Of a stretch of DNA of 64,000 nucleotides, positions 16,447 to 56,535 are shown piece by piece. A model generated the notes under the pieces. That model worked only from the letters and a program-made list of their open reading frames with translations, did no database searches and had not been told where the DNA came from. This stretch comes from Escherichia coli 042 (GTDB lineage Bacteria > Pseudomonadota > Gammaproteobacteria > Enterobacterales > Enterobacteriaceae). Within the stretch, counting starts at the first letter, position 1, and each line of letters starts with the position of its first letter. Location of the stretch: assembly GCF_000027125.1 (NCBI RefSeq), contig NC_017626.1. One strand, given 5' to 3'. The position numbers were made by a program, and so were the translations under genes.

Positions 16447-17493
16447 TTAGTACTTATTGAAGATCTGCTGGATCTGCTGCGGATCTTTGGTTTGCGTCAG
16501 AGCCAGTTGCAGCAGAACGCGCGCTTTTTGCGGGTTCAGCGTGCCAGAGGCGACGAAGCCGTATTTCGCATCATCCACTTCGGCATCCTGAGTGGTAGCG
16601 CCCGTCGGTACGCGGGAAGAACGCACGACTGCAGTACCGGTTTTCGCGGCGGTCGCCAGCGTGTCGAACACAGATTTATACAGGTTGCCGTTACCCACAC
16701 CAGCGCTAACGATGCCATCATAGCCCGCATCTACCAGTGCTTTAGCCGGAAGATCGGATGCGTTAGCGTAGTTATAAACAATGCCGACTTTCGGCAGTTC
16801 ATTCAGCTTAGAGACATCGAATGGCGTGTCGCTGGTATGCTTACGTGCCGGGGTACGCTGGTAGTCAATCTTACCGTTGTGAATGTAACCCAGAGGACCG
16901 TAGTTAACAGACTTGAAGGTCGCTACGTCGGTGGTGTTGGTTTTGGTGACGTCACGGCCATCAAGCACGGTGTCATTCATCACTACCAGCACGCCACGGT
17001 TGGCGGAGGCTTTATCAGCTGCGGTCACTACCGCGTTATACAGGTTGAATGGACCGTCTGCGCTCATAGACGTGGACGGACGCATTGCGCCGACCATCAC
17101 CACCGGTTTGTCGCATTTCACCGTCAGGTCGAGGAAGTAAGCAGTTTCTTCCATCGTGTCGGTACCGTGGGTAATGACGAAGCCGTCGGTCTTATCGCAG
17201 TCGGTGTTAATTTTTTTCGCCAGTGTCAGCCAGACATTATCGTTCATGTCCTGGGAGCCGATATTCACTACCTGCTCGCCTTTAACGTTCGCAATGTCTT
17301 TTAGTTGCGGCACCGCATTAACCAGATTTTCTACGCCAACTTTACCCGCTGTGTAGTTAGATTTGGTTGCGGAGTCACCACCACCGGCAATGGTCCCGCC
17401 GGTTGCTAAAATGGTGATATTGGGTAATGCCAATGCTGCACCACTAAAACCCATAACCAGTGCGGCAAGTGCCGTCTTTTTGAAAAACTCCAT
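16447..17493 (-). CDS. ansB: periplasmic L-asparaginase II
   Basis: 348-aa ORF MEFFKKTALAALVMGFSGAALALPNITILATGGTIAGGGD..., asparaginase TGGTIAG motif. Confidence 0.95.
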   Translation of the reverse strand: MEFFKKTALAALVMGFSGAALALPNITILATGGTIAGGGDSATKSNYTAGKVGVENLVNAVPQLKDIANVKGEQVVNIGSQDMNDNVWLTLAKKINTDCDKTDGFVITHGTDTMEETAYFLDLTVKCDKPVVMVGAMRPSTSMSADGPFNLYNAVVTAADKASANRGVLVVMNDTVLDGRDVTKTNTTDVATFKSVNYGPLGYIHNGKIDYQRTPARKHTSDTPFDVSKLNELPKVGIVYNYANASDLPAKALVDAGYDGIVSAGVGNGNLYKSVFDTLATAAKTGTAVVRSSRVPTGATTQDAEVDDAKYGFVASGTLNPQKARVLLQLALTQTKDPQQIQQIFNKY

Positions 17494-27397: not shown

Positions 27398-28663
27398 ATG
27401 GCACTGACTGACGCAAAAATCCGGGCAGCAAAGCCTACTGACAAGGCTTATAAACTCACTGACGGGGCTGGCATGTTCCTGCTGGTACATCCTAATGGTT
27501 CCCGTTACTGGCGTCTCCGTTATCGTATTCTGGGTAAGGAGAAGACTCTGGCACTTGGTGTGTATCCAGAAGTTTCTCTCTCCGAAGCTCGTACAAAACG
27601 GGATGAGGCCCGAAAACTGATTTCAGAGGGGATTGACCCTTGCGAACAGAAAAGAGTTAAAAAAGTAGTCCCTGATTTACAGCTCTCTTTTGAACATATT
27701 GCACGACGCTGGCATGCCAGTAATAAACAATGGGCACAATCACACAGCGATAAAGTACTCAAAAGCCTCGAGACACACGTTTTCCCCTTTATCGGCAACC
27801 GGGATATCACAACACTCAATACCCCGGACCTGCTTATCCCTGTTCGTGCTGCAGAAGCAAAACAAATTTATGAAATCGCCAGTCGTCTGCAGCAAAGAAT
27901 ATCTGCTGTAATGCGTTACGCCGTACAGTCTGGCATCATCAGATATAACCCGGCTCTGGATATGGCTGGTGCATTGACCACGGTAAAACGCCAGCATCGC
28001 CCCGCTCTGAATCTTTCACGCCTGCCTGAACTTCTGTCGCGTATTGACGGTTATAAAGGCCAGCCTGTCACCCGGCTTGCCGTTATGCTGAATTTACTGG
28101 TTTTTATTCGTTCCAGTGAACTCAGATATGCCCGCTGGTCTGAAATTGATATTGACAATGCCATGTGGACTATTCCAGCCGAACGCGAACCTCTGCCTGG
28201 CGTAAAATTCTCACACCGGGGCTCCAAGATGCGGACACCACATCTTGTGCCACTCAGTAAACAGGCTGTAGCCATACTGACAGAACTTCAGACATGGGCA
28301 GGTGAAAATGGTCTGATATTTACGGGTGCACATGACCCGCGTAAACCAATCAGTGAAAATACTGTAAATAAAGCCCTGAGGGTGATGGGGTATGACACAA
28401 CCCGGGATGTCTGTGGTCATGGGTTCCGGGCGATGGCATGTAGTGCGTTAATAGAATCAGGTTTGTGGTCCCGCGATGCTGTTGAACGTCAGATGAGCCA
28501 TCAGGAACGTAACGGTGTACGTGCTGCTTACATTCATAAAGCAGAACATCTGGAAGAACGCCGCTTGATGCTACAATGGTGGGCCGATTTTCTGGATGCA
28601 AACAGAGAAAGATTTATCAGTCCATTTGAATATGCAAAGATTAATAATCCATTAAAACAGTAA
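27398..28663 (+). CDS. P4-type tyrosine integrase (site-specific recombinase)
   Basis: 421-aa ORF starting 200 bp after tRNA-Phe; N-terminal MALTDAKIRAAKPTDKAYKLTDGAGMFLLVHPNGSRYWRLRYR and C-terminal HGFRAMACSA...RAAYIH catalytic region typical of P4-like integrases. Confidence 0.9.
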   Translation: MALTDAKIRAAKPTDKAYKLTDGAGMFLLVHPNGSRYWRLRYRILGKEKTLALGVYPEVSLSEARTKRDEARKLISEGIDPCEQKRVKKVVPDLQLSFEHIARRWHASNKQWAQSHSDKVLKSLETHVFPFIGNRDITTLNTPDLLIPVRAAEAKQIYEIASRLQQRISAVMRYAVQSGIIRYNPALDMAGALTTVKRQHRPALNLSRLPELLSRIDGYKGQPVTRLAVMLNLLVFIRSSELRYARWSEIDIDNAMWTIPAEREPLPGVKFSHRGSKMRTPHLVPLSKQAVAILTELQTWAGENGLIFTGAHDPRKPISENTVNKALRVMGYDTTRDVCGHGFRAMACSALIESGLWSRDAVERQMSHQERNGVRAAYIHKAEHLEERRLMLQWWADFLDANRERFISPFEYAKINNPLKQ

Positions 28664-28981: not shown

Positions 28982-30481
28982 TTACCTGTGGTCCGGAAGA
29001 ATAAGCGGCTGCGGTTTCAGACTGTCTTCCTGTACATACCTCTCTCCGTTAAAAACCATAATGCGTTCATTATCTTCGTCTGTCAGTGGATTGAATGGCG
29101 GTATATTTTCGGTACGAATACCGGTCAGCCACTGAAAAATACCTGTGAAATGACGGGCACTGATTTTTCTGCTGAGGGACTGATGAGAGGTTATATCACT
29201 GGCGGTAATAATCAGGGGCACGCTGTAGCCTCCCTGCACATGACCATCATGATGAACAGGATTAGCACTGTCGCTGACCGACAGCCCATGGTCAGAAAAG
29301 TAAAGCATGGCGAAATGACGTGAGTGTCGGCGAAGGATACCATCAAGCTGACCAAGAAAGTTATCCAGTTTACTGATGCTGGCAAGATAACAGGCAATTT
29401 TTCGGGAATACTGCTCCAGGTAATTATTCTGCCAGGAGTGAAGCCGATCACACGGGTTCGGATGAGACCCCATCATGTGCAGGAAAATCACCTTCGGAGT
29501 GGATGTATCTGCCAGCGCACGTTCTGTTTCCTGTAACAACAACATGTCATCCGTTTTACGGGAAGCAAAGCTGCCTTTCTTGAGGAAAACAGTATGGTCC
29601 GCATCAGAAGCAATAACAGAGATGCGTGTGTCATGCTCTCCCAGTTTTCCCTGATTGGATATCCACCATGTGCTGTATCCTGCTTTTGCTGCCAGCGCCA
29701 CCACGTTGTTGCCGGAATCAGGGTTCTGCTCATAGTCATAAATCAGTGTCCGGCTCAGGGAAGGCACGGTGCTGGCTGCTGCCGATGTATAACCGTCAAT
29801 AAATAAACCGGGAGCCGTATTCAGCCATGGTGTGGTTGGCTCGGGATAACCATATACCGACATATAATCCCTGCGGACACTCTCACCAGTAACAATAACA
29901 ATCGTGTCATATAATGGTGCTCCCGGCAGGATTTTCCAGCTGTCAGCACCGTGCCGACTCAGTTGTTCATAACGCTGCATTTCACGCAATGTGTCAGTTG
30001 TCCCCACAACTGTTCCTTTAACCATCCGTAACGGCCAGCTGTTTACAGAGCATAATACGAATAACAACAGAGCCATCGCGTTACGTTGACCACGGTGGTG
30101 TGTCCGCCAGAAAATAACCATGAACACCAGAATCGCGGCACTGACCAGAAAATGATAAACAGGAATCATCCCGGTAAACTCCGCAGCCTCATCCGCCGTG
30201 GTCTGCAACAACGCGACAATAAAACTGTTGTTGATTTTTCCGTACGTCATACCGACAGGTGCATACAGTGCACAACAGAACAGAAATAACAGAGCTGTAA
30301 TGGATGTAAGGGTATTTCTGTGTGCAAGAATCAGAAGGAGAAACAGCAGCAACACATTCCCGGTGGCATTCTTCTCAGTGTATCCGCATGCGGCAGTGGT
30401 TATTACACACATGCCCGGGAAGAATAAAAACAATAAAATCCGGGATATATTGTCCGTATAAAACAGCTTTCTGATATTCAT
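28982..30481 (-). CDS. membrane phosphoethanolamine transferase / sulfatase-family protein (EptA/YhbX-like)
   Basis: 499 aa; N-terminal multi-TM region followed by alkaline-phosphatase-superfamily motifs (TGESVRRDY, HMMGSHP, SDHG). Confidence 0.6.
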   Translation of the reverse strand: MNIRKLFYTDNISRILLFLFFPGMCVITTAACGYTEKNATGNVLLLFLLLILAHRNTLTSITALLFLFCCALYAPVGMTYGKINNSFIVALLQTTADEAAEFTGMIPVYHFLVSAAILVFMVIFWRTHHRGQRNAMALLLFVLCSVNSWPLRMVKGTVVGTTDTLREMQRYEQLSRHGADSWKILPGAPLYDTIVIVTGESVRRDYMSVYGYPEPTTPWLNTAPGLFIDGYTSAAASTVPSLSRTLIYDYEQNPDSGNNVVALAAKAGYSTWWISNQGKLGEHDTRISVIASDADHTVFLKKGSFASRKTDDMLLLQETERALADTSTPKVIFLHMMGSHPNPCDRLHSWQNNYLEQYSRKIACYLASISKLDNFLGQLDGILRRHSRHFAMLYFSDHGLSVSDSANPVHHDGHVQGGYSVPLIITASDITSHQSLSRKISARHFTGIFQWLTGIRTENIPPFNPLTDEDNERIMVFNGERYVQEDSLKPQPLILPDHR

Positions 30482-30632
30482 CGGAGTATATCGACAACAT
30501 TATTGTGAAGAGAATAAAAATCAGAAGTCTCCTGTGAAACAGATAACAGACAACCCTGCAGTATAATTACTGCAGGGAGTCTTCGTTTAATTACAGAAGA
30601 TGGGTAATTATTATCTTTCAGGAGCAGTTTTG

Positions 30633-31373
30633 TCAGAAGTTATAAGTCACACCAAGCATGATGTCATGACTTTTAACATCAACTTCTGATTTATATTTAT
30701 CGCCCCACTCGTCCTTGTAACTCACACTGCTGTCACCTGCATCAAGATAGCGATAGCTGAGGTCCAGAGCGATATCCGGGGTTACGTCATAGCGGACACC
30801 CGCGCCAAAGCTCCATGCGAAGTTGTCAGCAGAGCCTGAACGTGACAACGATTCGCGACCACTGCTTCCGTACCCATAATCCCAGGTACTGATACCGGTT
30901 GTTTTCTGGTGAATTCTGGCGTAGCCAATCCCTGCAGATACCCATGGTGTGAATGCACTGTCATTCCGGAAGTCATAGTACGCATTCAGCATCAGTGTGT
31001 TGACTGACACCTCATTCTTCAGGTCATCACGCCAGTAACCGCCTGACCAGCTGTCTTTATCTACGTTATACTTCGAATCAGCTTTTCCACGAGCGTAAAA
31101 CTCCAGTTCCGTACGAACCGGAATACTGAACTGCGGGTAAAAATCATAACCGGCCGCGATACCGCCACTGAATACCGTATCATGGCCATCACCGCCTTTA
31201 TATTTTGATGTTTCCTCTCCATCACCCGACAGGAAACGCTGGTCTGCAAGTGACATAACAGAAGCACCTGCTTTACCGGTCACATAAAAGCCTGTTTTGC
31301 TCTCATCAGCCAGAGCCTGGGTCGAAAACATGCCTGCCATGGCAAGCGCTGAAACCGCAATAACCTTATTCAT
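30633..31373 (-). CDS. outer-membrane beta-barrel protein (possibly opacity/Tia-Hek-like adhesin family)
   Basis: Signal peptide MNKVIAVSALAMAGMFSTQALA, alternating aromatic/hydrophilic strands, C-terminal ...LGVTYNF beta-barrel signature; subfamily uncertain. Confidence 0.55.
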   Translation of the reverse strand: MNKVIAVSALAMAGMFSTQALADESKTGFYVTGKAGASVMSLADQRFLSGDGEETSKYKGGDGHDTVFSGGIAAGYDFYPQFSIPVRTELEFYARGKADSKYNVDKDSWSGGYWRDDLKNEVSVNTLMLNAYYDFRNDSAFTPWVSAGIGYARIHQKTTGISTWDYGYGSSGRESLSRSGSADNFAWSFGAGVRYDVTPDIALDLSYRYLDAGDSSVSYKDEWGDKYKSEVDVKSHDIMLGVTYNF

Positions 31374-31597
31374 TTCAATCATCTCCGCTATCACTTTCCC
31401 CGAACGATAAATGGGGTTGCTCATTCTAAAACCATGCAAAAGATAGGGTAAAAGGAATGTTTTCGATCGAATCGATCGATAAAATCGATCGTACCCGATA
31501 AAGTTTTCTTATCGTACCCATAAAAATGGTAAGGGCTGGTTTAAGAGGTAATCGCAGCGGCATGGAAGTATTAAGACCAAAACAGCACGAGATAAAG

Positions 31598-31781
31598 CGG
31601 CTGAACGTCAGATGAGCCACATGGAACGTAATTCATTAAGGGCGGCTTATATCCATAAAACAGAACACCTGGAATAGCGTCGGTTGATGCTACAGTGGTG
31701 GGGGGATTTTCTGGATACAAACTCGAAAGAAAATACCAGCCCCTTTGAGTATACGAAGATTAACAATCCATTAAAATATTA
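31598..31781 (+). pseudogene. integrase 3' end remnant (duplicated C-terminal fragment of P4-type integrase)
   Basis: Nucleotide stretch ctgaacgtcagatgagcca...ttgatgctacagtggtgg...attttctggata...aatccattaaaa is clearly homologous to 28481..28663 (end of the intact integrase) but carries an in-frame TAG; followed by a similar ccgggca-loop-tgcccgg hairpin. Confidence 0.7.
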
Positions 31782-32010
31782 AGCACTCCGGGCAATCTGC
31801 CCGGAGTGCTTTAGCTGGCATAACGGGCTACTGATCTCCTCTGGTTACAGATAACGACTTCAGCCCTCTGAAAGAGAAAAGCGGAAGCTCAGGAAGGTTG
31901 TGATTTGCTTTTAACCTTTTTAATTTAGAAGTATTATTTTGAGATTAATCCACTTCCCATCGTCATCCTTTTTGGTGTGCGTGAAAAGCTATTTTTAAGG
32001 TTACTGCCTC

Positions 32011-34320
32011 ATGGAGTTATGGATATTTATAGTAGCTATTTATTTGATTTATATTCTTTTTTTCAAAAAGAAGAAAACTAAGTCCGCGGGCTCTTATACT
32101 TCCGCTCCTGTGAAAGCACCACCTAAAGAATGGCTTGCTAACAACAAAAAAAATCAGTCTGTAATGCAAAACGAGGACAGCGAAGATGACAATCTGGCTA
32201 CGTTTACACTAAGTGGCGGGCGGAATGTCGAATACAGCATAACAGCCACTCAACGCCAGAATTTCTCAAAAACTACCGGTGCTTTGGCTCGTTGGATTTT
32301 TCCGGGAGAGATGATCACAGTCAGTGGGATAGAGGTTACCGGCGGTCACTTCTATCTTGGGCAGCGTATGAAACCTGCCGGGCATAACTCAGGCGGTTAT
32401 TATGATGGCAATAACGAGGCATCGCTAGTTGACGACACGCTTAAAATATACCCCACACCTTACATTTACGAAGATAGTTCATTAGGGTATTGGCCCAGTT
32501 TTTCCTCACTTTCACCTGAAGCTCGTGGTGCGTACCTGAGTTGGCTTGCCAGCGACAGATGCGACACTTCCTGCCCAATTGGTTACGTTTTCATTTATCT
32601 GTATGGTCTGGAAAGAAGGGCGCTTGTTGACAGCAGGGACAACAATATATCCGACGATGAGTTCTATTCTCTTTTCAAAGAGATCTGCCGTCTCAGATCG
32701 GTTTTCAATGAAAACCGATCTTTCCGGAATTACTCATCCCAGTTACTTGAAGCGATGTCCATTCTTCGTCCGAACGAAAATCTTGCAGCAGCTCTCAACG
32801 ATGATTCGGAGTTCAGCAATAGCATGCAGTTCAGGTTAATCCTGGCAAAGACTGTTGATACAGGAGCCCCGGTTCCAGCGGATCTGGCTCTGACGTGGGT
32901 GACAAACCATGCTGAATACTCATTACGAACCCCCGCCCGCCGCTGTGCGAAAGAATTTGCTGCACTATTTAAACGGCGTTACACCCTTAAATACGGTGAA
33001 GGGATGGTAGTGAAGCCGAATAAAGCGCGTCTGCGTTTAGATTACACGCCTGCAAGTCCCAGTTTGCGAGGTATTCGGCTTCCTGTTCCCGACTTGCCTG
33101 ATCCAGGTGCATTGAAAGGCCCTGTTCAGAAGCTTATGGCCATTGCCGATATATGCACAGGTGAACTGGATGCTTACAGTCGTTACCTTGGTAGAAAAGG
33201 TACTTCAGCAAATGATACCGCTGCAATTTTGTTGCTGCCTTCAGAAATCGTTAACGAAAGCGCAGAAAAAATATTAAGTACATTCAAACACTGGGCTGAT
33301 GACGCAATCCGCAGTAAGGGTGGGATAGTTTCAGTTGCTGACTACTGGTCACATATGAATGCCACCTGTCCGGCGAAGATCAATAAAAAAGAGGCCGACT
33401 TAATGCAAGCCTTTGCACAGAAAATGGGATACTGTCTGGCTCCTGACCCCTATCACCACCACGTAAAGGCAGATGTCGATGGTGTACTTGTTTTATTCCC
33501 TGCTGGTGAAAGAGGACGTTTCTCACCTTCTCCTGAATTTATCACAGCTGTATTGACGCTCCGATTAGGTTCGGTAGTCGCCTTGATTGACAATTCTCTC
33601 GATCAAGCCGAACAGAAAGTGCTTGAGAATGCCATCAACAACAATGCCAGCTTCAGCGATGATGAAAAGCGCTCTCTGCACGCATATTTAACGTGGCAGC
33701 TTCATACTCCGGCGAATATGACGGGAATGAAAAGCCGGATTGAATTACTCGGTGCAGCGGAAAAATCAGCTGTGGGTAAGGTTATCGTTAGTGTCGCTTG
33801 CTCTGACGGCAGAATTACGCCTGCCGAAATCAAACAGCTTGAGAAGATTTATACAAGCCTGGGACTGGATCCCTCATCCGTATCAAGCAATATCCATCAG
33901 CATTCCGCAACTGAAACTGCTCTCGTTTCATCTGTACCAGCTAATCAGTCGACGGCAGGGTTTACGCTGGATGCCAACGTACTTGCCCGCCACGAATCTG
34001 CCACTGATGATGTTCGTAAATTACTGAACTCAATTTTCACTGAAGAAGAACCAGAACAACCAGAAAGCGCTCCAGCCTCATTAACCGGGGAAGGGGGACT
34101 TGACTCCGCTCATAGCCAACTTTATCGCAGGTTGCTGGAGAAAGAACAATGGTCCAGAAAAGAGGCGACAGAGTTGTGTAGTAACTGGAACCTGATGCTC
34201 GGCGGTGCGCTTGAGGTGATTAACGATTGGTCCTATGCGGTGGTTGATGCACCAGTGCTGGAAGATGCTGATGATCACATTTGGATTGACCTGGAAATAG
34301 CCAAAGAATTAGAGGGTTAG
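32011..34320 (+). CDS. TerB-domain membrane-anchored protein (Shango SngA-like)
   Basis: 769 aa; N-terminal TM helix (MELWIFIVAIYLIYILFF), region with GYVFIYLYGLERR and a later ...VSVACSDGRITPAEIKQLEKIYTSLGLD block that I recognise as TerB-N / TerB-like; first gene of a tightly packed three-gene operon. Confidence 0.6.
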   Translation: MELWIFIVAIYLIYILFFKKKKTKSAGSYTSAPVKAPPKEWLANNKKNQSVMQNEDSEDDNLATFTLSGGRNVEYSITATQRQNFSKTTGALARWIFPGEMITVSGIEVTGGHFYLGQRMKPAGHNSGGYYDGNNEASLVDDTLKIYPTPYIYEDSSLGYWPSFSSLSPEARGAYLSWLASDRCDTSCPIGYVFIYLYGLERRALVDSRDNNISDDEFYSLFKEICRLRSVFNENRSFRNYSSQLLEAMSILRPNENLAAALNDDSEFSNSMQFRLILAKTVDTGAPVPADLALTWVTNHAEYSLRTPARRCAKEFAALFKRRYTLKYGEGMVVKPNKARLRLDYTPASPSLRGIRLPVPDLPDPGALKGPVQKLMAIADICTGELDAYSRYLGRKGTSANDTAAILLLPSEIVNESAEKILSTFKHWADDAIRSKGGIVSVADYWSHMNATCPAKINKKEADLMQAFAQKMGYCLAPDPYHHHVKADVDGVLVLFPAGERGRFSPSPEFITAVLTLRLGSVVALIDNSLDQAEQKVLENAINNNASFSDDEKRSLHAYLTWQLHTPANMTGMKSRIELLGAAEKSAVGKVIVSVACSDGRITPAEIKQLEKIYTSLGLDPSSVSSNIHQHSATETALVSSVPANQSTAGFTLDANVLARHESATDDVRKLLNSIFTEEEPEQPESAPASLTGEGGLDSAHSQLYRRLLEKEQWSRKEATELCSNWNLMLGGALEVINDWSYAVVDAPVLEDADDHIWIDLEIAKELEG

Positions 34321-34323
34321 TGA

Positions 34324-35640
34324 ATGTCTGTAACACGTATAAGAGTGAAAGAGCGCGACGCTATCATTCAGTCACTTAAGTCGGGAGTAACGCCAAGAAT
34401 AGGTATTCAGCATATCCAGGTTGGCCGCGTGAATGAGATAACCGCCCTCCATCAGGATATTGAACGGATTGCTGATGGCGGGGCAAGCTTCAGACTTATC
34501 ATTGGTGAGTACGGTTCCGGGAAAACATTCTTTTTAAGTGTTGTACGGTCTATTGCGTTAGAGAAGAAGCTGGTCACGGTCAGTGCAGACCTTTCTCCCG
34601 ACAGACGTATCCACTCATCGGGAGGTCAGGCTCGTAATCTCTACTCAGAGCTTATGAAAAATATGTCCACCAGAAACAAACCAGATGGCAATGCATTACT
34701 TAGCGTTGTGGAAAGGTTTGTTACTGAGGCAAGGAAGGAAGCTGATGCGAACGGCTCCCTGGTCTCATCCGTTATTCATAAACGCCTTGCTGCTTTGTCA
34801 GATATGGTGGGAGGATATGACTTTGCGAAGGTCATTGACGCATTCTGGCGCGGGCATGAGCAGGATAACGAAACCTTAAAATCCAATGCTATTCGCTGGT
34901 TGCGGGGCGAGTACACCACAAAAACTGATGCCCGTAATGATCTTGACGTCCGAACGATTATCTCAGACGCCTCGTTCTATGATTCTTTGAAGTTGATGAG
35001 CCTTTTTGTCCGTCAGGCAGGCTATGCCGGACTTTTAGTTAGCCTCGACGAGATGGTGAACCTCTTCAAGTTGAATAATACGCAAGCGAGAACGGCCAAC
35101 TACGAACAAATTTTGCGGATTCTGAATGACTGCCTGCAAGGCTCCGCCGAAAATATTGGTTTTATCCTCGGGGGGACGCCAGAATTTCTTTTCGATCCAC
35201 GTAAGGGGCTCTACAGCTATGAAGCGCTCCAGTCGCGTCTGGCAGAAAACCGATTCGCACAGAAAGCTGGCGTGATTGACTACTCGTCCCCCACGCTGCA
35301 TCTTGCCAGCCTCACTCCTGAGGAACTGTATATTTTACTGAAAAACCTTCGTCATGTTTATGCTGGTGGAGATCCCGTAAATTATCTGGTGCCAGATGAT
35401 GCTCTGACCGGGTTTCTGCATCACTGCAGCAAAACCATCGGAGATGCTTACTTTCGAACTCCCCGCAATACCATAAAAGGTTTTCTGGATATGCTGGCTG
35501 TGCTGGAACAAAACAGAACGATGAACTGGCAACCCCTCATTGAGGGGGTGGCGATTGAAGAAGACAAGCTCAGCGATATGGATGATGCCATTGTGGAGGA
35601 AAGTGATGACGATGATGGCCTGGCGAATTTCAGATTATGA
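34324..35640 (+). CDS. P-loop ATPase (Shango SngB-like)
   Basis: 438 aa; Walker A GEYGSGKTF, Walker B LLVSLDEM; starts 4 nt after upstream stop and overlaps downstream start. Confidence 0.65.
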   Translation: MSVTRIRVKERDAIIQSLKSGVTPRIGIQHIQVGRVNEITALHQDIERIADGGASFRLIIGEYGSGKTFFLSVVRSIALEKKLVTVSADLSPDRRIHSSGGQARNLYSELMKNMSTRNKPDGNALLSVVERFVTEARKEADANGSLVSSVIHKRLAALSDMVGGYDFAKVIDAFWRGHEQDNETLKSNAIRWLRGEYTTKTDARNDLDVRTIISDASFYDSLKLMSLFVRQAGYAGLLVSLDEMVNLFKLNNTQARTANYEQILRILNDCLQGSAENIGFILGGTPEFLFDPRKGLYSYEALQSRLAENRFAQKAGVIDYSSPTLHLASLTPEELYILLKNLRHVYAGGDPVNYLVPDDALTGFLHHCSKTIGDAYFRTPRNTIKGFLDMLAVLEQNRTMNWQPLIEGVAIEEDKLSDMDDAIVEESDDDDGLANFRL

Positions 35641-37835
35641 GTAGTGCCTACAATAGTCTTGATCCCCGTGTCCGTAAGTGGGTTTATAAGCAGGGCTGGT
35701 CATCCTTAAGGCCCTTGCAGGAAAGCTCTATTCCGGCAATTTTAGCCCGTGATCGTGATGTACTAATTAGTGCAGGTACAGCTGCGGGTAAAACAGAGGC
35801 TTTCTTTCTTCCTGCCTGTTCAGCGATTGCAGATCTCACTGGTGGATTTGGCATTATCTATATCAGTCCATTGAAGGCATTAATTAACGATCAACACCGT
35901 CGTCTTGAGAGTCTTGGTGAAGCCCTGGAAATGCAAGTGACGCCCTGGCACGGGGATGTACCACAAAGCAAAAAGAAGAAAGCACGGACAACCCCTTCTG
36001 GCATCTTACTTATCACACCTGAATCACTTGAGTCTTTGCTCATAAACTCATTGGGTTGGCTCAAACAGGCGTTTTCTTCTGTGGCATACATTGTTATTGA
36101 TGAGTTCCATGCTTTTATTGGCTCAGAGCGTGGTATACAGCTGCTTTCTCTGCTTAACAGAATTGACCATGTGCTGGGACGCCAGTTGAATCCAGTTCCC
36201 CGTGTCGCGTTGAGTGCCACACTGGGAGAGCTGGAAAAAGTACCAGAACTATTGCGCCCGGATAAGAGATTACCTTGTGAAACGGTAACAGACAGTAATA
36301 GCAAAGCCACAATACAGGTTCAGGTTAAAGGTTATCTTGAGCGGGTGCCCGAAAAAGGAAAAGAGCTCCAGAGCTCTGCTGAACAGCTCGTCTGCGCGGA
36401 TATTTTCAGGCTCTGCCGTGGCGATTCCCACCTAGTCTTTGCTAACAGTCGAAAGCGTACTGAAAGCATAGCGGCAACACTGAGCGACATGTGTGAAGCA
36501 AATGTCGTTCCTAATGAATTCTTTCCTCATCATGGTTCCCTTGCAAGGGAGTTGCGTGAGGCGCTTGAAGCCCGACTGCAGAAAGGGAATTTGCCCACAA
36601 CCGCTGTTTGTACAATGACTCTGGAGCTGGGTATTGATATTGGTAAGGTGCAGTCTGTCATACAAGTGACACCTCCGCATTCTGTTTCCAGTCTGCGTCA
36701 ACGCATGGGACGTTCAGGGCGGCGCGATTCCCCATCGGTGCTGAGAATGTTAATTACTGAACCTGAACTTACCGCAACCAGCAGCATTGTGGATCATTTA
36801 CGGCTGCAGTTGGTTCAGGCGATGGCAATGATCAGGTTGATGATCTCTAAGCGCTGGTTCGAGCCTGCAGATATCCGGCAGAAACATTACTCCACACTAC
36901 TACACCAGATCTTGGCTATTACTGCGCAATGGGGAGGTGTTCGTGCCGATCAGCTCTGGTCACAACTTTGCCAGACAGGTCCGTTCCGGAATGTGGATAT
37001 AAATGACTTCAAAAGTCTGCTTAAACATATGGGGACATGTGGCCTGCTCACTCAACTAACCAGCGGTGAAATAGTTGTCGGGGCTGAGGGGGAGAAACTG
37101 ACTAATCACTACACGTTTTATACCGTATTCAATACACCTGAGGAGTTTCGCATTGTAACGGGAAACCGAACTCTTGGCACAGTGCCTGTAGACTCCCCAC
37201 TTTTGCCGGAGCAGCACATCATCTTCGGCGGACGGCGCTGGAAAGTGACAGAGATCGAGGTTGAAAAAAAGGTTATCTATGTTGAGACGACTAAAGGCGG
37301 TCAGCCGCCACTATTCAGTGGTAGCGGGATGTCTGTTCATGATGTTGTTCGCCAGGAAATGCTCACTATCTACAGGGAAAATGATTACCGTATCGCGGTA
37401 GGCAACAAGAGAGTCGATTATGCTGATGCCGCAGCCAGAAGCCTCTTCGCGGAAGGAAGTGACAACTTCCAACGCTACAATCTACAAAATGACTGTTTTA
37501 TTGCCAGTGGTCAGAACTGCTACGTGATCCCGTGGATGGGGGATAAAATTGTCAATACAATTACGTCCCTGCTTATACGTTGTGGCTTTAAAGCCAGTTC
37601 ATTTGCAGGTGTGATAGAGGTAGAGGACTCAGGCGTTGCCTCTGTCCAGCGTGCACTTAAGAAAATGCTATTGTCGGGGCTACCTTCAGAGTTTGAGCTT
37701 GCTGCAGTTGTTCCCGACAAGTATCTGGATAAATATGACGAGTATTTACCAGAGACTTTGCTTGCTAAAGGGTATGGGGCACAGGCGTATGATATAGAAG
37801 GAACGTGCATCTGGCTGCAGAAACACCTTCAGTAG
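35637..37835 (+). CDS. DEAD/DEAH-box (Lhr-like SF2) helicase (Shango SngC-like)
   Basis: 732 aa; motif I AGTAAGKTEAF, motif II VIDEFH, motif III SAT, motif VI MGRSGRR; ATGA start/stop overlap with upstream ATPase. Confidence 0.7.
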   Translation: MSSAYNSLDPRVRKWVYKQGWSSLRPLQESSIPAILARDRDVLISAGTAAGKTEAFFLPACSAIADLTGGFGIIYISPLKALINDQHRRLESLGEALEMQVTPWHGDVPQSKKKKARTTPSGILLITPESLESLLINSLGWLKQAFSSVAYIVIDEFHAFIGSERGIQLLSLLNRIDHVLGRQLNPVPRVALSATLGELEKVPELLRPDKRLPCETVTDSNSKATIQVQVKGYLERVPEKGKELQSSAEQLVCADIFRLCRGDSHLVFANSRKRTESIAATLSDMCEANVVPNEFFPHHGSLARELREALEARLQKGNLPTTAVCTMTLELGIDIGKVQSVIQVTPPHSVSSLRQRMGRSGRRDSPSVLRMLITEPELTATSSIVDHLRLQLVQAMAMIRLMISKRWFEPADIRQKHYSTLLHQILAITAQWGGVRADQLWSQLCQTGPFRNVDINDFKSLLKHMGTCGLLTQLTSGEIVVGAEGEKLTNHYTFYTVFNTPEEFRIVTGNRTLGTVPVDSPLLPEQHIIFGGRRWKVTEIEVEKKVIYVETTKGGQPPLFSGSGMSVHDVVRQEMLTIYRENDYRIAVGNKRVDYADAAARSLFAEGSDNFQRYNLQNDCFIASGQNCYVIPWMGDKIVNTITSLLIRCGFKASSFAGVIEVEDSGVASVQRALKKMLLSGLPSEFELAAVVPDKYLDKYDEYLPETLLAKGYGAQAYDIEGTCIWLQKHLQ

Positions 37836-43781: not shown

Positions 43782-45569
<1,788 letters not shown>

Positions 45570-45670
45570 AAACGCACCTTAATCTGCGAACAAAAAAAAG
45601 AATCATCACCGACACCCACGACGTTATATCGTGGATGTCGCTTTATTCAGAAATAAAAAAACTGAAGTGG

Positions 45671-46021
<351 letters not shown>

Positions 46022-46644
46022 TCAGCCCTCTCGTTCCTGCAACATAATTTTCCAGTCAAACGAAAAACCTTTTATTCATGTCATACCAACAATCACCAGC
46101 CTCCTGACGATACCTCCCACCATGTTTTGCGATGGCACGCTACCGCCCTTCCGGTATTTACCCGCATCAACTGGTACCAGAATGCTGAGCAATAAATCTG
46201 CCAATTTTTAGCTGACTTATTTTTGATCATTATAGAATAATGATCTGAACTACAGCAATATGACAGATTTATCGATCGATATAACACAAATGAACAGTTC
46301 TTTATTCTGTCATATATCGCAAAAACAGCACATTGCAAAATTTATAACCATAATTAATGGAAAAGTGCAGAAAATTATTCCACTGAATGCTCAGTTGGTT
46401 AGCTAAAAAAATAGCAATTTTTGATTTCAGTCATTGAAAATTGCAATGCATGACGATTCAACAGCATTTAAGTGAGTTTCAGGATATGGGAAGGACATGA
46501 AAGGAGGAGCGCAATAAAATATACAGGAAGAAGGGGAAAATGTTTCGTAAAAACAGAAAATTAACAGCGCACATCAGGAAACGCAGTCTCCTGATTCAGT
46601 GCTACCACATGAAAATTTAGTTAACTGTTACCGTACTAAAATTT

Positions 46645-46836
46645 ATGTCAGAAGATGTTCCATTACCGAAAGTCAATCAGCGATACAAAGACGATCATGG
46701 TGCGCTTGTCACCGTGACCAGTGTTGAGGAAACCCGGGTGGTGTTTATGCGGGACGGCTATCCGCATCCCTGCATGCGACCGATGTACAACTTTCTGGGA
46801 AAATTCAAACCCGCCCCCCGGGAAGAAACAGAATAA
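46645..46836 (+). CDS. small hypothetical protein
   Basis: 63-aa ORF preceded by an AT-rich region; no domain recognised. Confidence 0.3.
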   Translation: MSEDVPLPKVNQRYKDDHGALVTVTSVEETRVVFMRDGYPHPCMRPMYNFLGKFKPAPREETE

Positions 46837-46888
46837 AACGAAATCCCTGCCGGCAATCACACTGCCTGATGGCAGCATAATCCACTTA

Positions 46889-47122
46889 TTAATTCTCATC
46901 TCCGGAGACAAGCCCTGAAAACCACTCAGGGTGTTCACTGTATGCCGTGTTCAGCGCATCCCAGGAAACGTTTATATAAAAGCTGTCCTGCAATTTCCGG
47001 GTAACCACCTCTGCCAGGCGGTTCCGGTTATCCGCCAGTCCGGCATAACCTCTCTCTGTCAGCCACTCATTCAGTTCATGTTTCAGAGACAGATTAATAA
47101 TATCATAATCGGACCTTGCCAT
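46889..47122 (-). CDS. hypothetical protein
   Basis: Track ORF 46889..47197; plausible start at MARSDYDIINLSLKHELNEW; downstream of and co-oriented with 47218..47877. Confidence 0.3.
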   Translation of the reverse strand: MARSDYDIINLSLKHELNEWLTERGYAGLADNRNRLAEVVTRKLQDSFYINVSWDALNTAYSEHPEWFSGLVSGDEN

Positions 47123-47217
47123 TCCCGTTTCCTTAGCACATATTTTCAGGCACGGGGATAAAGTATAAAGAATGTCGTACTGCTGCTGCCAGAGCAATAT
47201 TCCCCCTGATGGTTGTA

Positions 47218-47877
47218 TCAGAGATGGTATGCCGGTACTTTGCGGGTTGTTCCTGTCAGGTTATCGTGCACCTCCACGGTCGTGGTCACCACCGGCATTC
47301 CGGCCTTTCTCAGCCTCAGAACATCAGCCGCAATACGCTGACTGCCAAACCAGAACAGGCCGTCCAGTGCAGTCACCAGTAAACCCGCCTCCAGTGCATA
47401 CTTCAGCCGTTCACGGGGCGCTTTCACTTCCCGGGCAACCTGCTGATATGGCAATGATGTGTTTTCATTCCCAACCACGCGACGAATACGGTGAGACAGA
47501 TGATACCGGAATGTATCCGGCACACCAGAAAGGCTGGCCTTCAGGCTGTACACGCAACCAAACCGTTTATCGTTAAACACCACATTTTTCTGGCTGATGC
47601 CCCATTCTTCACGCAGCGCGGCAATCAGTTGTGGTGTCCGGGTAAGCAGCAAGCGAAAAGGCAGTTCAAAACTGGTGACGTAATCCACATTCAGCAGTGC
47701 AATACGCAGCCGTTCTTCTGGCCCGGCCTCTGTCTGCCGGCACTCCTCCAGAACATCCTGCCACTGCTGGCGAAGACGGGAAGACTCATTCAGCTCAGTA
47801 AAACTGTATTTATCCGCCAGATAGTCAATTCGTGTACGCATACTGAAGAGCATTCCGTATAAAGATTCAGCTGGCAA
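47218..47877 (-). CDS. hypothetical protein
   Basis: 219-aa ORF, co-oriented with neighbours; no motif recognised. Confidence 0.4.
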   Translation of the reverse strand: MPAESLYGMLFSMRTRIDYLADKYSFTELNESSRLRQQWQDVLEECRQTEAGPEERLRIALLNVDYVTSFELPFRLLLTRTPQLIAALREEWGISQKNVVFNDKRFGCVYSLKASLSGVPDTFRYHLSHRIRRVVGNENTSLPYQQVAREVKAPRERLKYALEAGLLVTALDGLFWFGSQRIAADVLRLRKAGMPVVTTTVEVHDNLTGTTRKVPAYHL

Positions 47878-48108
47878 AACTTTATCAGTCCATAAAAATC
47901 AACGGAAGCGCAGATGGTTCACACGTCCATTACCAACTGATTGTTGTCACAACCGGTAACACAAAGGACTGAACGACTGTTTTTAACAGCGGTGTTGCGT
48001 CATCCACCACCGTGAAACAACGCTGTGCAGGGAATCGTCCGCATCCCCATAACGGTCAAACATCGTGGCGTTGACAGAATGACCGACGAAAAGCCAGAAA
48101 GCGCTGAT

Positions 48109-48657
48109 TCACTGAGCTGTAATCAATGTACAGCGCTGTACCGGACGATGGGTAATGGCGGTCACAACCGGTAACCCCAGAGACAATGCGACTGTTTTTA
48201 ACGCAACATACTGACCGGATGTATCACCCCGGGCAACCCGAAAACACCTTTCCACCCGGCATTGTCCGCCAGCACTTATCACCTGCCAGCTATGTTGCAG
48301 TAAATCCACCACTTGCGAACATTGTTCATCAACTGTGACACTGGCTCGCGGGTGACAAATACTCGTCTGGCTGAGCAGCAACAGGCATCGAATTGTTGCT
48401 CCTTCATGTTGTTCCCGCAACCAGCGTAATACCACCGGAGAGGATGGACTGGCAGTGTGATTACGCTCAGTAATACGTTCATGCAGTTGTCGATAAAAGG
48501 AAGTACAGAATGCCTGAATCTGTTGCCCGTTGATGTTTCCTTCAGCCGAATGGAGCGTGAAGTGGACTGCCAGCAGACGCGGCCAGTGGTCCACCGCCTG
48601 CTGAACAAAACGCCGGATGTCTCCCGGCTCTGAAATTAAGGCTTCGGTTATTTGCAC
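48109..48657 (-). CDS. hypothetical protein
   Basis: 182-aa ORF with GTG start at 48657; its 5' end and upstream region are duplicated at 61420..61514. Confidence 0.45.
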   Translation of the reverse strand: MQITEALISEPGDIRRFVQQAVDHWPRLLAVHFTLHSAEGNINGQQIQAFCTSFYRQLHERITERNHTASPSSPVVLRWLREQHEGATIRCLLLLSQTSICHPRASVTVDEQCSQVVDLLQHSWQVISAGGQCRVERCFRVARGDTSGQYVALKTVALSLGLPVVTAITHRPVQRCTLITAQ

Positions 48658-48732
48658 GAAATGTTCCTTTTCAAACCCTGTTGAATTTTGTTAAGCCAGT
48701 GCAGACACAGTAAAGCGCGCATCAACACCTGA
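48641..48732. repeat. left copy of ~95-bp imperfect direct repeat flanking the microcin cluster
   Basis: gcttcggttatttgcac...tgttgaattttgttaagcc.gtgcagacaca...gcgcatcaacacc shared with 61420..61514 (identical blocks of 17, 19 and 11 nt). Confidence 0.7.
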
Positions 48733-49087
48733 AATGATGGTTTTATTCAGAGTATATGACTTTCTTTTACCCGCTCAAGATACGTTCCCTAGCGATATCA
48801 TCAGAAGTTTATGTGTTGTGTATCCATCCATATTAATCTGGTTCCAGTTTTCGGTATATGTCATGAGGAAACATTACAAATATATTCTGGAGCGGAGAAA
48901 GGAAATTGAAACCGTTTCAGAAAGGTTGATACGTGAGGCTGATACGAGAGAATATGAACTATGGCGTCCTGCCCGTCGTTTTTTCTCCATTCTTTTTATT
49001 GTTCTATTAGTTTATATTCATTCACTGATAACAACTATAAAATAAAAATTATGGCTGTTCTGATACCGGAGAAGAAACGTTCATTCT

Positions 49088-49806
49088 ATGGTTACCTCTT
49101 CCTGTTATATAAAAATTTTAAATAACAAGCAAGGGAATATAAATGGAAATAACAAAAAATGCAACATAAAAACAGTCATCAGCGGCTGCTTTTTAATGTT
49201 TACTTTATCATTTTCTATTACCTTTATTCCTGCATTCCTTACAAACAGGCAGGAACTTATATCCAGGGGACTTCTTGTTCCAGCATTATTTCTTGCTGAA
49301 TTTCTAATTCTTGTTCCACTGTATTTTATTTTCTTCCGAAAAAGAGAAGGATTAGGAAGAGGTTCTTTTCGACCGGATGTTTTTTACTCTTTTCTCTTTA
49401 ATAATGATTATTCAGTTATTTGTCCCTTATCTGCTGGCAGTGAGGAAAACGGAAGAATGGATGATCTCGCAAATGTCTTTTTCTGAGGCCATTTTATGTT
49501 TCTTCTGTACTTCTATGTTCCTGTATATGAAGAGATTGTATTTCGAGGGTGTTTTTTTAATTCTTTATAATTCTGGTTTAATGACAATATTTACATCTCT
49601 GCCATTGTAACATCAGTCATATTCTCTGCATTGCATCTACAATATACTGACTTTCGTACATTTTTTATGCTCTTTTTAGTATCGTTAGTTCTTATTAGCG
49701 CACAAATAAAGTCGAATGGTCTGTTAATGCCCATATTACTTCACATGGCGATGAATGCAGTCATAGCAGGAATACAATATCTAGCTTATATCAGTTATTC
49801 CCATTA
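49088..49806 (+). pseudogene. possible CPBP (CAAX-protease/Abi)-family membrane protein, apparently frameshifted
   Basis: Three successive overlapping frames of hydrophobic ORFs; the last (49617..49806) reads ...FSALHLQYTDF...LLHMAMNAVIAG, resembling CPBP motifs 2 and 3; motif 1 not clearly seen. Confidence 0.3.
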
Positions 49807-50002
49807 ACAGAGCATTTTCTGTTACAATCTCATATGATAAAAATTAAACGGACTAGCATTGTTACTATGCGGTATGCATAAAATGATAAACGTTCGGAGG
49901 AGCCTAACTTAAACCATTACATAGGCATCATTAACAATATAAGGTTTAATTTCCACTCCCCGCAGACGAAGAAGCACTTGATGTACATCTGCCGGATCCA
50001 AA

Positions 50003-50224
50003 CTAGGATGATAATCCTATACCTGAGGGAGACATGGAGGGACTAACCGTCGCAGTCGTTGCCCATGAATGTACTTTATCACCTATATAAGCCCCTGCAA
50101 TAGAACCAAATCCCGGGCTAATAAACGTACCTGCAAGTGAACCAATAGCAATTAATTCTGCCTGCCCGTCATTCCCGTCACCTCCAGATATTTGTTTTAT
50201 TTCATTTTCAGATAGTTTTCTCAT
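50003..50224 (-). CDS. mcmA: microcin M precursor (class IIb siderophore-microcin)
   Basis: MRKLSENEIKQISGG double-glycine leader and Ser-rich C-terminus ...MSPSGIGLSS; recognised as microcin M precursor; ATG at 50224 with aaggtg RBS; the track ORF extends in-frame upstream from a TTG. Confidence 0.8.
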   Translation of the reverse strand: MRKLSENEIKQISGGDGNDGQAELIAIGSLAGTFISPGFGSIAGAYIGDKVHSWATTATVSPSMSPSGIGLSS

Positions 50225-50285
50225 TTCAACACCTTCGCTATAAAATTTGTGAAGAAGTAAAAATTCACGTTTAACCACAACGATA

Positions 50286-50441
50286 AAAATGTAACTACAA
50301 GTGATAAAAAAACATATATAGATTAAAAAAATTATATCTATAGTAATAACTAAGATATAATGACACCGGAATATAAAAGAACAGATAATTGATAACAAAA
50401 GCAATCACTGTTATTTTTATATCCTTCTTAACCTCCCCCAT
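50286..50441 (-). CDS. candidate microcin M immunity peptide (51 aa, hydrophobic)
   Basis: Hand-translated ORF MGEVKKDIKITVIAFVINYLFFYIPVSLYLSYYYRYNFFNLYMFFYHL between mchF and mcmA with ggag RBS; below the track cutoff; the known immunity protein length was not verified. Confidence 0.35.
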
Positions 50442-50476
50442 CGACAAAACTCCTTACAAAGTTACACCAGTGGATT

Positions 50477-52573
50477 TTAAATAGAAATAATCCTGTCAAC
50501 AGTTCTCAACGTAGTTTCTCTGTGTGCAATAATCACCCGGGTGATATTCATTTTTTTTATGGCAGCATTCACGAAACGTTCACTTTCTGTATCAAGAGAA
50601 CTTGTAGCCTCATCCATAAATAATATTCCAGGTTTCCGGTATAAAGCTCGGGCAATGAATATACGCTGTTTTTGACCGCCGGAAAGACCTTCCCCCAGTT
50701 CACCTATTAACGTTTCATACCCCATTGGCATTTTCATTATCACATCATGAATATGACTTGCTCTGGCACATTCTGTCATCCATTCGTCGTCTGTTTCTTC
50801 TGCAAACCCACAGATATTTTCACGAATTGATCCTGAAAATAGCCGGTCGTCCTGCATAACACAGGCTATCATACGGTGATAATTATTTATTCCAAGTTGA
50901 CGTATATCCGTGCCATTAACCAGTACTTTTCCACTATCTGGTTCAAACAGTCCACATAATACTTTCATTAATGTGGTTTTTCCGGCACCGGAGGCACCAG
51001 TTATAGCCACACTTTCTCCCGGAGCCACAGACAAATTCAGACCACTGAATACCTGTGCTGACTGGCTGTCATACCGGTAGCTTAAATCAGTGGTTTCCAG
51101 TGAAACCGGGCTCATGTCAGCAACGATTTCAATTTCCGGTTTCTTTTCTTCCTTTTCATGTAGTGCAATATCTGCAATGCGCTCATTATGCAGACTCATT
51201 ATTCTCAGTTGAAGAAGAAAACTGGTCAGCGAAGCAACCCGATCCGAAAACTGCCCACGAAAAGAACCAAATGCCACAAACATCCCTATTGTCATCTGAT
51301 TATCGATCACAAGGCTTGCACCCAGCCATAAAATCGCCACCTGATCACAGGCGGCAACAAAAGTATTTATCCCCCCGAAGAGCAAATCCATCTTGGTTAA
51401 CTTAATACCTGAATTGATCGCATCTATTTTCAGGTTAAGCCAGTGTGTTCCCCGGATCCCAGCCATACCTTGGATTTTTACCGTGGCAATACCATACAGG
51501 CTTTCCATAAAATAGGAGCTGGCCCGGGCCCCCCTGACAAGAGTTTCTTCCGATATTTGCCGGTAATAGCCGTATGTCACCAGACGAATAAGAACGTAAA
51601 CCATGGTAAAACCGAGCACTATCCAGGTAAGATATCCTCCATATAACAGCATCATCACAAAAACACCCACAACCATAATACTGTCCATGATTGCCCCAAC
51701 CACACAGGTGGTAAAGGTGGCCCTCAAAGTGTCAAGGGAGCCAAAACGCGACTGGATATCACCTAATTTACGGCGTTCAAAAAACGCCAGCGGCAGTCTG
51801 AGAAGATGGTTAAACAGACCCGACTGCCACTGTATATTGATGAGCGTGCTCATAACCAGTGAGGACCATGCACGCAGCATACTCACCGCGGCCCTGAGCA
51901 ATATAAAGAACATCAGGCCAGCAGAAATAAGCGTCAGCAGCCCTCTGTCCCCCGCCGGAATCGCATGATCCATAACCAGCTGAGTCCCCACCGGCATTAC
52001 CAGATTGATTGCTTCAATTACAACTGACAGACAGAAAATTTTCGCCAGTGTTCTTTTAATACCGTAAATACTGTTAATCAGTGAACGGAGACTTATGCGG
52101 ATCTGCTGGGTTTCCGCCAGGAATTCACTTCCAGGCCAGACCTCAAGTGCAATGCCCGTAAAATACCGGCTCATTTCCTCCCGACCGAGATATCTTCTGC
52201 CTCTGGCCGGATCATGCAGTACATAACGGTTACGCTTTACGCTGACCAGCACGACAAAGTGACTGAAATCCCAGTGGAGAATACACGGCATTTTGAGGGC
52301 ACCAAGTTCATCCAGCTCCAGTGAAAGAGCCCGGGTGACCATCCCCAGCTGCTCCGCTATTCCATTGATTCCTGCAAGGTTTGCTCCACGGGCCGAGAGA
52401 TTAAACTTCCGGCGAAGAGATATCAGGTCAATATTCTTACCAAAATGACCGCATATCATTGCCAGGCAGGCCAGTCCACATTCAGCGGTCTCCGTCTGAT
52501 GAATAACCGGAACACGACGTCGCCAGCGCATATCAAGCTGATTTATAATTTGTCTGAAACTCCCGTTAGTCAT
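50477..52573 (-). CDS. mchF: microcin ABC exporter with N-terminal C39 peptidase domain (CvaB homolog)
   Basis: Track ORF 50477..52591; from [42 protein letters not shown] closely matches CvaB/MchF; Walker [10 protein letters not shown], signature LSGGQ. Confidence 0.85.
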
Positions 52574-53840
52574 TGAGCGGTCCTGTTGCACTGTGTTTCA
52601 TGTCATAGAAAGGAGAAAGCATCCACTGGTAAATACGCCTTTTTTCCAGAAATAGTGTACTTTCGGCTTTCATTCCATTTTCCAGAGGGAGGTATTTTTC
52701 GTCATATCTGATAATCTGCTTTTCAGGCATCGCAATGACTTTATACCAGGGAACAGAGGCGCCCGGCGTATTCTGTGGTGCACCCTTATAGGTCAACATT
52801 TCCTGTGTTGACGCAGGAGTCCTGGATATAGTTTTAACCGTAGCAGAGAACTGCCCAAATTTTTCTGCCGGAAAGGCTTCATAACGAATATTCACTTTGT
52901 CACCAGCCGAAATATAAGGAACAGCATCATTTGGGACCCAGAGAATAAGATAATAGTTTTCAATGTTCTCAGGAATAACCTGCAGAAGGCTGTCTCCGGT
53001 ATTGACCATTTGCCCGACAGTGACACTCAGGGAGTCAACTTTCCCGTCAGTCAACGCCCGGATAATAATTTCGCCCTCCACATCAGTGTTAACCAGTTCT
53101 TTCTGTAACTCGTACCGTTGCAGTTCCATCTGGTAGATACGGTTATCAAAATCTGCAGCCTGAGTCTGAATCTGACTCTCCAGAGTGGTTATCTGCAGGG
53201 CATTCTGTTCGTTCTGTCCGCTCAGGCTGAGAAGATTGTTTTGTTGCTGATAATATAATGCCACCTGGTTAGTTAACTGATCTTTATTAATCAGCCCTTT
53301 TGCCTGATAGTTTCTGTAATTCTCCATATTGTTTTTCATTATTTTTATCCCTTCCTCTGCACGCTGTATAATATCTGATGAGCGACGAAACGCATCTGTG
53401 TATTGCAGACGTTGTTTTTCCAGGGTATCTAACGTTATTTTTTTACTTTCTTCCAGACGGGAAATAATGTTGTCCACACGAACCAGCTGATTTTCTATAT
53501 CCCGCCGATGATTATCAGTGACAATACCACTACGTGTACTTTTACTGATGTCAATCAGATAAACAGGATCCCCTTTTTTTATCAACTGCCCTTCATGAAC
53601 AAATTGCCTGACAACAAATCCCTGTACACCTGAATATATATTGACAGCTCTTGGCCAGGTTGTGACCTCACCACTGACATTAACACGGCGGCTATAGGTA
53701 CCAACAATAATGAACATCAGAAATGCCGTAATAAACACAATGCTTCCCAGCATGATTAACCATAGTGGTATTCCGGGAAGTAATATTGCCCGTCCCTGCC
53801 ACTTCATTTTTCTGTTTTCTAAAGCATCCTGACGAAACAA
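52566..53840 (-). CDS. mchE: microcin secretion membrane fusion protein (CvaA/HlyD family)
   Basis: 424 aa; [40 protein letters not shown] matches CvaA/MchE N-terminus; overlaps mchF start. Confidence 0.85.
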
Positions 53841-53992
53841 AATAGCTCCTCTTACTCACACTTTTCCTGTAATACCTTCACTGATTAACCGAAACGCTAT
53901 AATCAAAGCCAGAAAATACAGAGTCCTGTCAAAATAGTATCAGCGATGCATTTACCCCGTAATTTACAATTATCTCTGTATCTTCAGAGGTA

Positions 53993-54445: not shown

Positions 54446-54470
54446 GATTACTATTTCCCTTATATATTTA

Positions 54471-56519: not shown

Positions 56520-56535
56520 ATAAACTCCATCATAT

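Follow-up and report, generated by a model that had tools for sequence, protein, structure and literature searches.

The closest precedents for the switch considered here are agn43, gtr, opvAB, mom and std. In agn43 (flu, antigen 43), as at the locus described below, three GATC sites lie in a short operator, a 13-bp GATC pair flanks an OxyR-type half-site, and the controlled gene codes for an autoaggregating outer-membrane adhesin found on islands. The third GATC of agn43, however, is found 19 bp away on the opposite side, within another good half-site (8/10). In the window (the whole 64-kb stretch of DNA that was analysed), by contrast, the third GATC of the cassette follows after 9 bp, there is only a weak second half-site, and the cluster is placed upstream of the predicted −35 element. 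The agn43 operator is located downstream of the transcription start. In gtr, opvAB and Mu mom, 13-bp GATC pairs of the form GATCGnTnnnAn[C/A]GATC also lie in OxyR half-sites, upstream of the promoter; the P22 gtr paper places the GATCs at −110/−97 and −46/−33. An OxyR site overlapping the −35 element represses gtr, and a candidate weak half-site overlaps the predicted −35 here. In contrast to the window cassette, gtr and opvAB have alternative half-site pairs, each with its own GATCs, and their ON and OFF states carry opposite methylation patterns; because all GATCs of the window cassette are in or next to one half-site, it allows only a choice between a bound, unmethylated and a free, methylated state.

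The std operon of Salmonella, a bistable switch operated by HdfR and Dam, likewise controls adhesin genes and has three GATCs in 25-26 bp, spaced by 13 and then 9 bp towards the promoter, with the shared segments TACGATC...ATCGATCG..TCGATC. According to the std paper, the three GATCs of its UAS are at −242, −229 and −220, and the binding of HdfR requires GATC-2 and GATC-3 and is blocked by methylation. The std cluster differs in its distance from the transcription start (220-240 bp upstream), in its need for the operon-encoded StdE and StdF, which form a feedback loop with HdfR, and in its 13-bp pair, which departs from the form of an OxyR half-site (6/10). Finally, the pap family would have Dam-dependent control of an adhesin in common with the locus, and the cassette often physically adjoins pap operons, but pap relies on two GATC boxes 102 bp apart in Lrp sites and on PapI, which are absent at the window cassette.

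In the window, which is part of the E. coli chromosome, three clustered GATCs precede a gene for an outer-membrane beta-barrel adhesin of 246 aa (30633-31373, minus strand), whose start at 31373 agrees with the RefSeq annotation of an identical locus. The product is 91% identical to a pap-linked allele, the 90% cluster of which includes entries named "adhesin/virulence factor Hek" and "Tia invasion determinant", 89% identical to an atoSC-linked allele whose position is that of Hes in the LAA island, and 70-72% identical to alleles named "invasion outer membrane protein Tia" in RefSeq. These high identities, together with its form (the family consists of beta-barrels of about 245 aa), make it a member of the Hra1/Hek/Tia/Hes family, known as adhesins, invasins and autoagglutinins. 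We propose, tentatively and at somewhat less than an even chance, that a portable regulatory cassette is built around the GATCs and contains an operator whose occupation by a LysR-type regulator, most likely OxyR, is sensitive to Dam methylation; this operator would lie directly upstream of the predicted −35 element. The cassette, whose Dam-site cluster is conserved and functionally constrained, would then be a probable addition to the epigenetic switches of the Dam/LysR type.

The GATC cluster, its predicted promoter and its island

The three GATCs in 26 bp that were predicted from the sequence are present, at 31487-31490 (GATC-1, promoter-distal), 31474-31477 (GATC-2, central) and 31465-31468 (GATC-3, promoter-proximal), and they lie, as also predicted, upstream of the start of the outer-membrane protein gene at 31373, 95-117 bp from the ATG (at −117, −104 and −95, respectively). 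GATC-2 is 13 bp from GATC-1, and GATC-3 is 9 bp from GATC-2. [quoted passage not shown] Both copies of the predicted direct repeat also exist, atcgtacccgataaag at 31488-31503 and, 23 bp from it on the same (plus) strand, atcgtacccataaaaa at 31511-31526, although the second copy starts at 31511 and not at 31512. In this second copy the position of the GATC box reads GATA, and the repeat, which is weakly conserved among other alleles, looks like an old tandem duplication of about 23 bp of a GATC-box unit.

The number of GATCs is not significant by itself, and we have dropped the bare count as an argument: when the 205 GATCs of the window are placed at random, at least one cluster of three in 26 bp appears in 36% of the trials, with a mean of 0.46 per 64 kb. 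Together with the variable copy number of the 9-bp unit, this expectation would suit a neutral cluster, a functionless short tandem repeat of TCGATCGA. Such an origin is nevertheless very improbable, and is contradicted by conservation, as the cluster is among the most conserved upstream stretches in alleles that differ at 20-30% of the other positions. Moreover, in the 5 kb of island around the cluster there are five GATCs in total, three of which are those of the cluster, and the 17-mer pattern GATCGNTNNNANCGATC occurs a single time in 64 kb. The GATC-poor surroundings, the single occurrence of GATCGNTNNNANCGATC and the strong conservation in diverged alleles thus argue that the cluster is more than a product of chance. 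The only other cluster of three GATCs within 26 bp in the window, at 16462-16485, served as a control; it is without the half-site form, and since it belongs to a coding repeat (GATCTGCTGGATCTGCTGCGGATC) within overlapping ORFs it looks codon-driven rather than regulatory. We also considered that the cluster could be a known RNA element, and rejected this because no Rfam match was found over it. Matches to the consensus sequences of Fur, IHF, DnaA and RcsB were assessed by eye, and none was convincing.

The cluster is followed, after 12 bp, by a conserved predicted promoter, TTTACC-18-TA(A/G)AAT. On the minus strand, a nearly invariant −35 element, TTTACC, is predicted at 31447-31452 and a conserved −10 element at 31423-31428, which reads TAGAAT in the window and TAAAAT in most alleles; the 18-nt spacer between the two is also nearly invariant among alleles. 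TTTACC-18-TAGAAT (31452-31423) is the only σ70-like match on the strand of the gene in the 31300-32050 region, where the background of the scan is 1.7 such matches per shuffled region. [quoted passage not shown] No alternative promoter was found upstream of the cluster, by the scan or by eye, which makes an operator downstream of the transcription start, as in agn43, unlikely.

The locus is part of a pheU island which, from the annotation of an identical record, is inserted at tRNA-Phe and adjoins dsbD/dicD; the 31300-32050 region is matched by 268 complete genomes at an identity of at least 99%. A P4-type integrase is encoded at 27398-28663, and downstream of the adhesin gene a phosphoethanolamine transferase gene occupies 28982-30481 (minus strand). 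A terminator-like hairpin with a perfect 10-bp stem and the T-rich tail TTGTCTGTTA (30554-30577, minus strand) lies between the two genes and is followed by promoter-like hexamers ahead of the transferase gene, which, to judge from these signals, may be transcribed separately from the adhesin; the transferase gene is absent beside many cassette alleles. On the other side, the cassette adjoins the 3' remnant of another P4-type integrase (31597-31782), after which comes a hairpin with a 14-bp stem (31781-31811). The same remnant also flanks the cassette in leoABC-linked and other islands, and it may be that the adhesin cassette was at one time the first cargo gene of an island with an integrase. 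Next to the cassette on its upstream side, three genes (32011-37835) code for a TerB-N protein, an ATPase and a DEAD/DEAH helicase, which match SngA, SngB and SngC of PADLOC with E values of 9e-100, 4e-186 and 1e-277; as judged by these matches, the block is a Shango anti-phage defence system. Further along the same island (about 45000-60000 of the window; L162) are a microcin H47-type cluster (mchB, mchI, mchF, a gene for an HlyD-family protein and mchS3), ibrB-like and PerC-family genes, and fragments of type VI secretion genes.

Likeness to OxyR and HdfR sites

GATC-1 and GATC-2 form the two ends of a dyad, GATCGATTTTATCGATC (31474-31490, minus strand), the inner 15 bases of which match the OxyR half-site ATAGnTnnnAnCTAT at 8 of 10 positions, a score reached by 0.04% of the positions in the window. 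The dyad also fits the form GATCGnTnnnAn[C/A]GATC, with its 13-bp GATC pair, which is common to agn43 (GATCGTTTATATCGATCGAT being the core of the K-12 operator), to the OxyR(A) and OxyR(C) sites of P22 gtr (GATCGGTAACAACGATC and GATCGCTTGTATCGATC, respectively) and to Mu mom (GATCGGTAATACAGATC); in 1.4 Mb of scanned DNA, only the Hra cassettes, agn43, gtr and mom contain it. By our own reading, the window counterpart of the agn43 core, GATCGATTTTATCGATCGAT, matches GATCGTTTATATCGATCGAT at 18 of 20 bases. As in the OxyR/Dam switches, the candidate site includes at least two GATCs, while the next element begins with GATC-3, at 22 bp from GATC-1. A weak second half-site, ATAGGGTAAAAGGAA (6/10; 31443-31457, plus strand), is found 17 nt from the strong one and overlaps the predicted −35 element. 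The two add up to a full OxyR-type site of 14/20 (8/10 and 6/10 at 17 nt), tied for the best in 64 kb; at 7 nt, the other spacing possible in a tetramer, 8/10 pairs with 5/10. The second half-site falls to 5/10 in most other alleles, according to our reading of the alignment, and at position 10 of the half-site the consensus A is replaced by G in 24 of 40 distinct alleles, including most of the Tia type. For comparison, the half-sites of the known switches score 8 and 8 against the OxyR consensus in agn43 and 8, 10 and 8 in gtr (both scored here), and 10, 8, 10 and 7 in opvAB.

The geometry of the cluster points to a second candidate regulator. The std sequence, which we obtained by walking the Salmonella chromosome from idi to stdA, has its GATC triplet, TACGATCATAATCATCGATCGTATCGATC, 216-239 bp upstream of the stdA start codon. 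The spacing of 13 and 9 bp is identical in the two clusters, which share 23 of 34 bases, a figure equal to that for agn43, and in 1.47 Mb the pattern GATC-N9-GATC-N5-GATC is confined to the Hra cassettes and std. The 17-bp dyad TCGATCGA-A-TCGATCGA (31463-31479), in which two 9-bp units carry GATC-2 and GATC-3, is a site of the T-N11-A type and corresponds to the GATC-2/GATC-3 pair that HdfR needs for binding in std. In Salmonella enterica (L165, 15872-18390), the std operon is itself preceded by a gene for an Ail/Lom-type outer-membrane protein and a YfdX gene.

The same Dam-sensitive switch could thus be served by HdfR, or by another LysR-type regulator, activating from about −60; the unmethylated, bound state would then be ON and the methylated state OFF, as in std. 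We regard this as rather unlikely, even though the GATC geometry, including its polarity towards the promoter, fits std as well as any OxyR site, and although the 9-bp pair is the one that HdfR binding requires in std. To our knowledge no HdfR motif has been described, so that the window site cannot be scored for this regulator. Of the nine bases inside the 13-bp pair, those of the Hra cassettes match the OxyR pattern G.T...A.C at 3-4 of its 4 positions, against 2 of 4 for std, and outside the shared GATCs the window is identical to agn43 at 15 of 26 positions and to std at 11 of 22. It is because of this better fit and of the higher non-GATC identity to agn43 that we rank OxyR first and HdfR second. 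The std site, moreover, is 220-240 bp upstream of its promoter and not beside a −35 element, and in nine chromosomal contexts from E. coli whose annotation was inspected the cassette is not accompanied by StdE- or StdF-like genes.

Conservation of the cassette among islands

Homologues of the 187-bp sequence upstream of the gene, down to 70% identity, occur in 1,682 of 5,426 complete E. coli genomes (about 31%). We aligned the upstream regions of 12 alleles, from pap-, leoABC-, atoSC-, hns- and dnd-linked loci and from two MAG contigs, which cover three protein clades that are 63-73% identical to one another. The alignment delimits a conserved regulatory cassette of about 160 bp (31374-31533, minus strand), homologous from ATTTT... 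to the ATG. Farther than about 160 bp upstream of the ATG the sequence differs among island contexts, and since the homology stops there and gives way to context-specific sequence, the cassette travels with the gene. In these many islands, which share no regulator gene, the regulator must be core-encoded, and OxyR or HdfR would fit; both are LysR-type proteins, and hdfR is a core E. coli gene.

Each of the three GATCs is intact in 11 of the 12 aligned alleles. An unbiased sample was drawn from metagenomes by anchoring on the invariant promoter block instead of the GATCs; among the 109 homologous cassettes recovered, 102 have three or four GATCs, six have two and one has a single site. In 40 distinct sequences, GATC-1 and GATC-2 are each conserved as tetramers in 97.5% and GATC-3 in 87.5%; the median over all tetramers is 62.5%. 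Variation is seen immediately 5' of GATC-1 and GATC-2 and in the stretch between the cluster and the −35 element, but the bases that flank the GATCs (CGATCG) are also well conserved, so that selection could act on a larger palindromic operator in which the GATC is incidental.

Along these lines, the cluster could be an operator or promoter-upstream element independent of methylation, either bound by a dimeric regulator at the ATCGAT/TCGATCGA palindromes or, as phased A/T tracts, shaping the promoter, with GATCs that are incidental and always methylated. The conservation of the T-run in addition to that of the GATC flanks (GATCGATTTT is nearly invariant) agrees with such an element, the nearly invariant −35/−10 spacer suggests further protein contacts, and phase variation of this adhesin family is not reported in the accessible literature. 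Yet the GATCs stay constant even though the bases directly 5' of GATC-1 and GATC-2 change, every characterized locus with the dyad form or the geometry is regulated by Dam, and the island is otherwise poor in GATCs; we therefore consider a methylation-independent element improbable, if by no means negligible.

The copy number of the 9-bp unit TCGATCGAT varies (L009 to L011 and L015, and metagenome loci such as L089 and L155). In one clade a 9-bp insertion brings the number of GATCs to four, a metagenomic variant that lacks a 9-bp unit retains two, and in the L005-type sub-clade GATC-3 is mutated to GATA. Natural variants with one, two, three or four GATCs, which arise from gain or loss of 9-bp units or from point changes, may tune or lock the switch. 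Among species-representative genomes, three close relatives were recovered, two of which, both MAG contigs, have full-length genes and the cluster; an Arsenophonus homologue (44% aa identity) lacks the GATC cluster. Since this homologue is without the cluster and only three close relatives were recovered, the cassette is apparently confined to Escherichia-type alleles.

Many alleles of the cassette are found directly downstream of pap operons, which could suggest a switch of the pap type, operated by Lrp and a PapI-like protein. This is the least probable of the explanations considered, and we give it hardly any weight, as no GATC pair spaced by about 102 bp is present (the next GATCs on either side, at 31833 and 29446, are 343 bp and 2 kb distant), the island has neither a pap operon nor papI, and the cassette also occurs in islands without pap. 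In one pap-linked island (that of E. coli 82.0311; L004, 4578-5156), the GATC cassette precedes a 122-aa ORF with a predicted membrane segment and not the adhesin gene; remnants of the first codons of the adhesin follow the cassette, and hek, which lies downstream of these, has another upstream region that contains no GATCs. The cassette is placed before the 122-aa ORF in about one-fifth of the metagenomic cassettes, and the ORF of the pap-linked islands has no NCBIfam match. Possibly, then, the same cassette drives the gene for a 122-aa membrane protein ahead of hek in these islands, a suggestion that is part of the family-wide interpretation set out below and is, like it, put just below an even chance.

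A possible epigenetic switch in the Hra1/Hek/Tia/Hes family

The original prediction, that a surface-protein gene is controlled by methylation in the manner of pap and agn43, is partly borne out by the sequence, in the conservation of the GATCs in three clades, in the OxyR half-site form, matched exactly, in the std geometry and in the place of the cluster beside the predicted −35 element. The likeness to pap does not hold: the locus has no GATC pair of about 102 bp and no papI or papB. From these comparisons we infer the identity of the regulator, the effect of methylation and phase variation. After replication, the LysR-type regulator and Dam would compete for the hemimethylated cluster. If the regulator arrives first, the GATCs would be shielded and the unmethylated, protein-bound state would be inherited; if Dam acts first, the regulator would be excluded and it is the methylated state that would be inherited. 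The two states would differ in transcription of the adhesin gene, and a clonal population would split into ON and OFF cells. We lean towards a polarity in which the protein-bound state is OFF and the methylated state ON, as in agn43 and mom, because in the best OxyR-type full site the partner of the strong half-site is a weak one lying over the −35 element; the opposite polarity, as in std, remains the alternative. With such a switch, the Hra/Hek/Tia-family adhesin would probably be expressed in only part of the population. By extension, the whole Hra1/Hek/Tia/Hes family may undergo epigenetic phase variation that depends on Dam, by means of one portable cassette in which an OxyR-type half-site and the std GATC geometry are united, a proposal which we put just below an even chance.

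A search of the accessible full-text literature, outside which an earlier notice is possible, found neither phase variation nor a role of Dam or OxyR described for hek, hra, tia or hes; it also yielded no methylation, binding or expression results for the cassette promoter and no methylome table that covers it. In a study of EAEC, Hra1-mediated aggregation was treated as masking an unidentified phase-variable autoagglutinin; Hra1 itself was not treated as phase-variable. If the switch proposed here is real throughout the family, which occurs in about one in three complete E. coli genomes, the surface structures that Dam is known to switch in this species, pap-like fimbriae and Ag43, would be joined by a third family. 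It would also link the OxyR-type and HdfR-type switch architectures, and the alleles with one, two, three and four GATCs would provide a natural operator series for the study of switching rates in Dam/LysR-type systems. Hra1, Hek, Tia and Hes serve as virulence markers and have been studied in EAEC, ETEC, UPEC/NMEC and LEE-negative STEC, mostly from inducible plasmids. Should their native promoters be bistable, measurements made on bulk cultures and single colonies would be biased, a bias that has been demonstrated for Ag43. Expression in the host would then be heterogeneous, and the value of these proteins as vaccine or diagnostic antigens would need to be re-examined.
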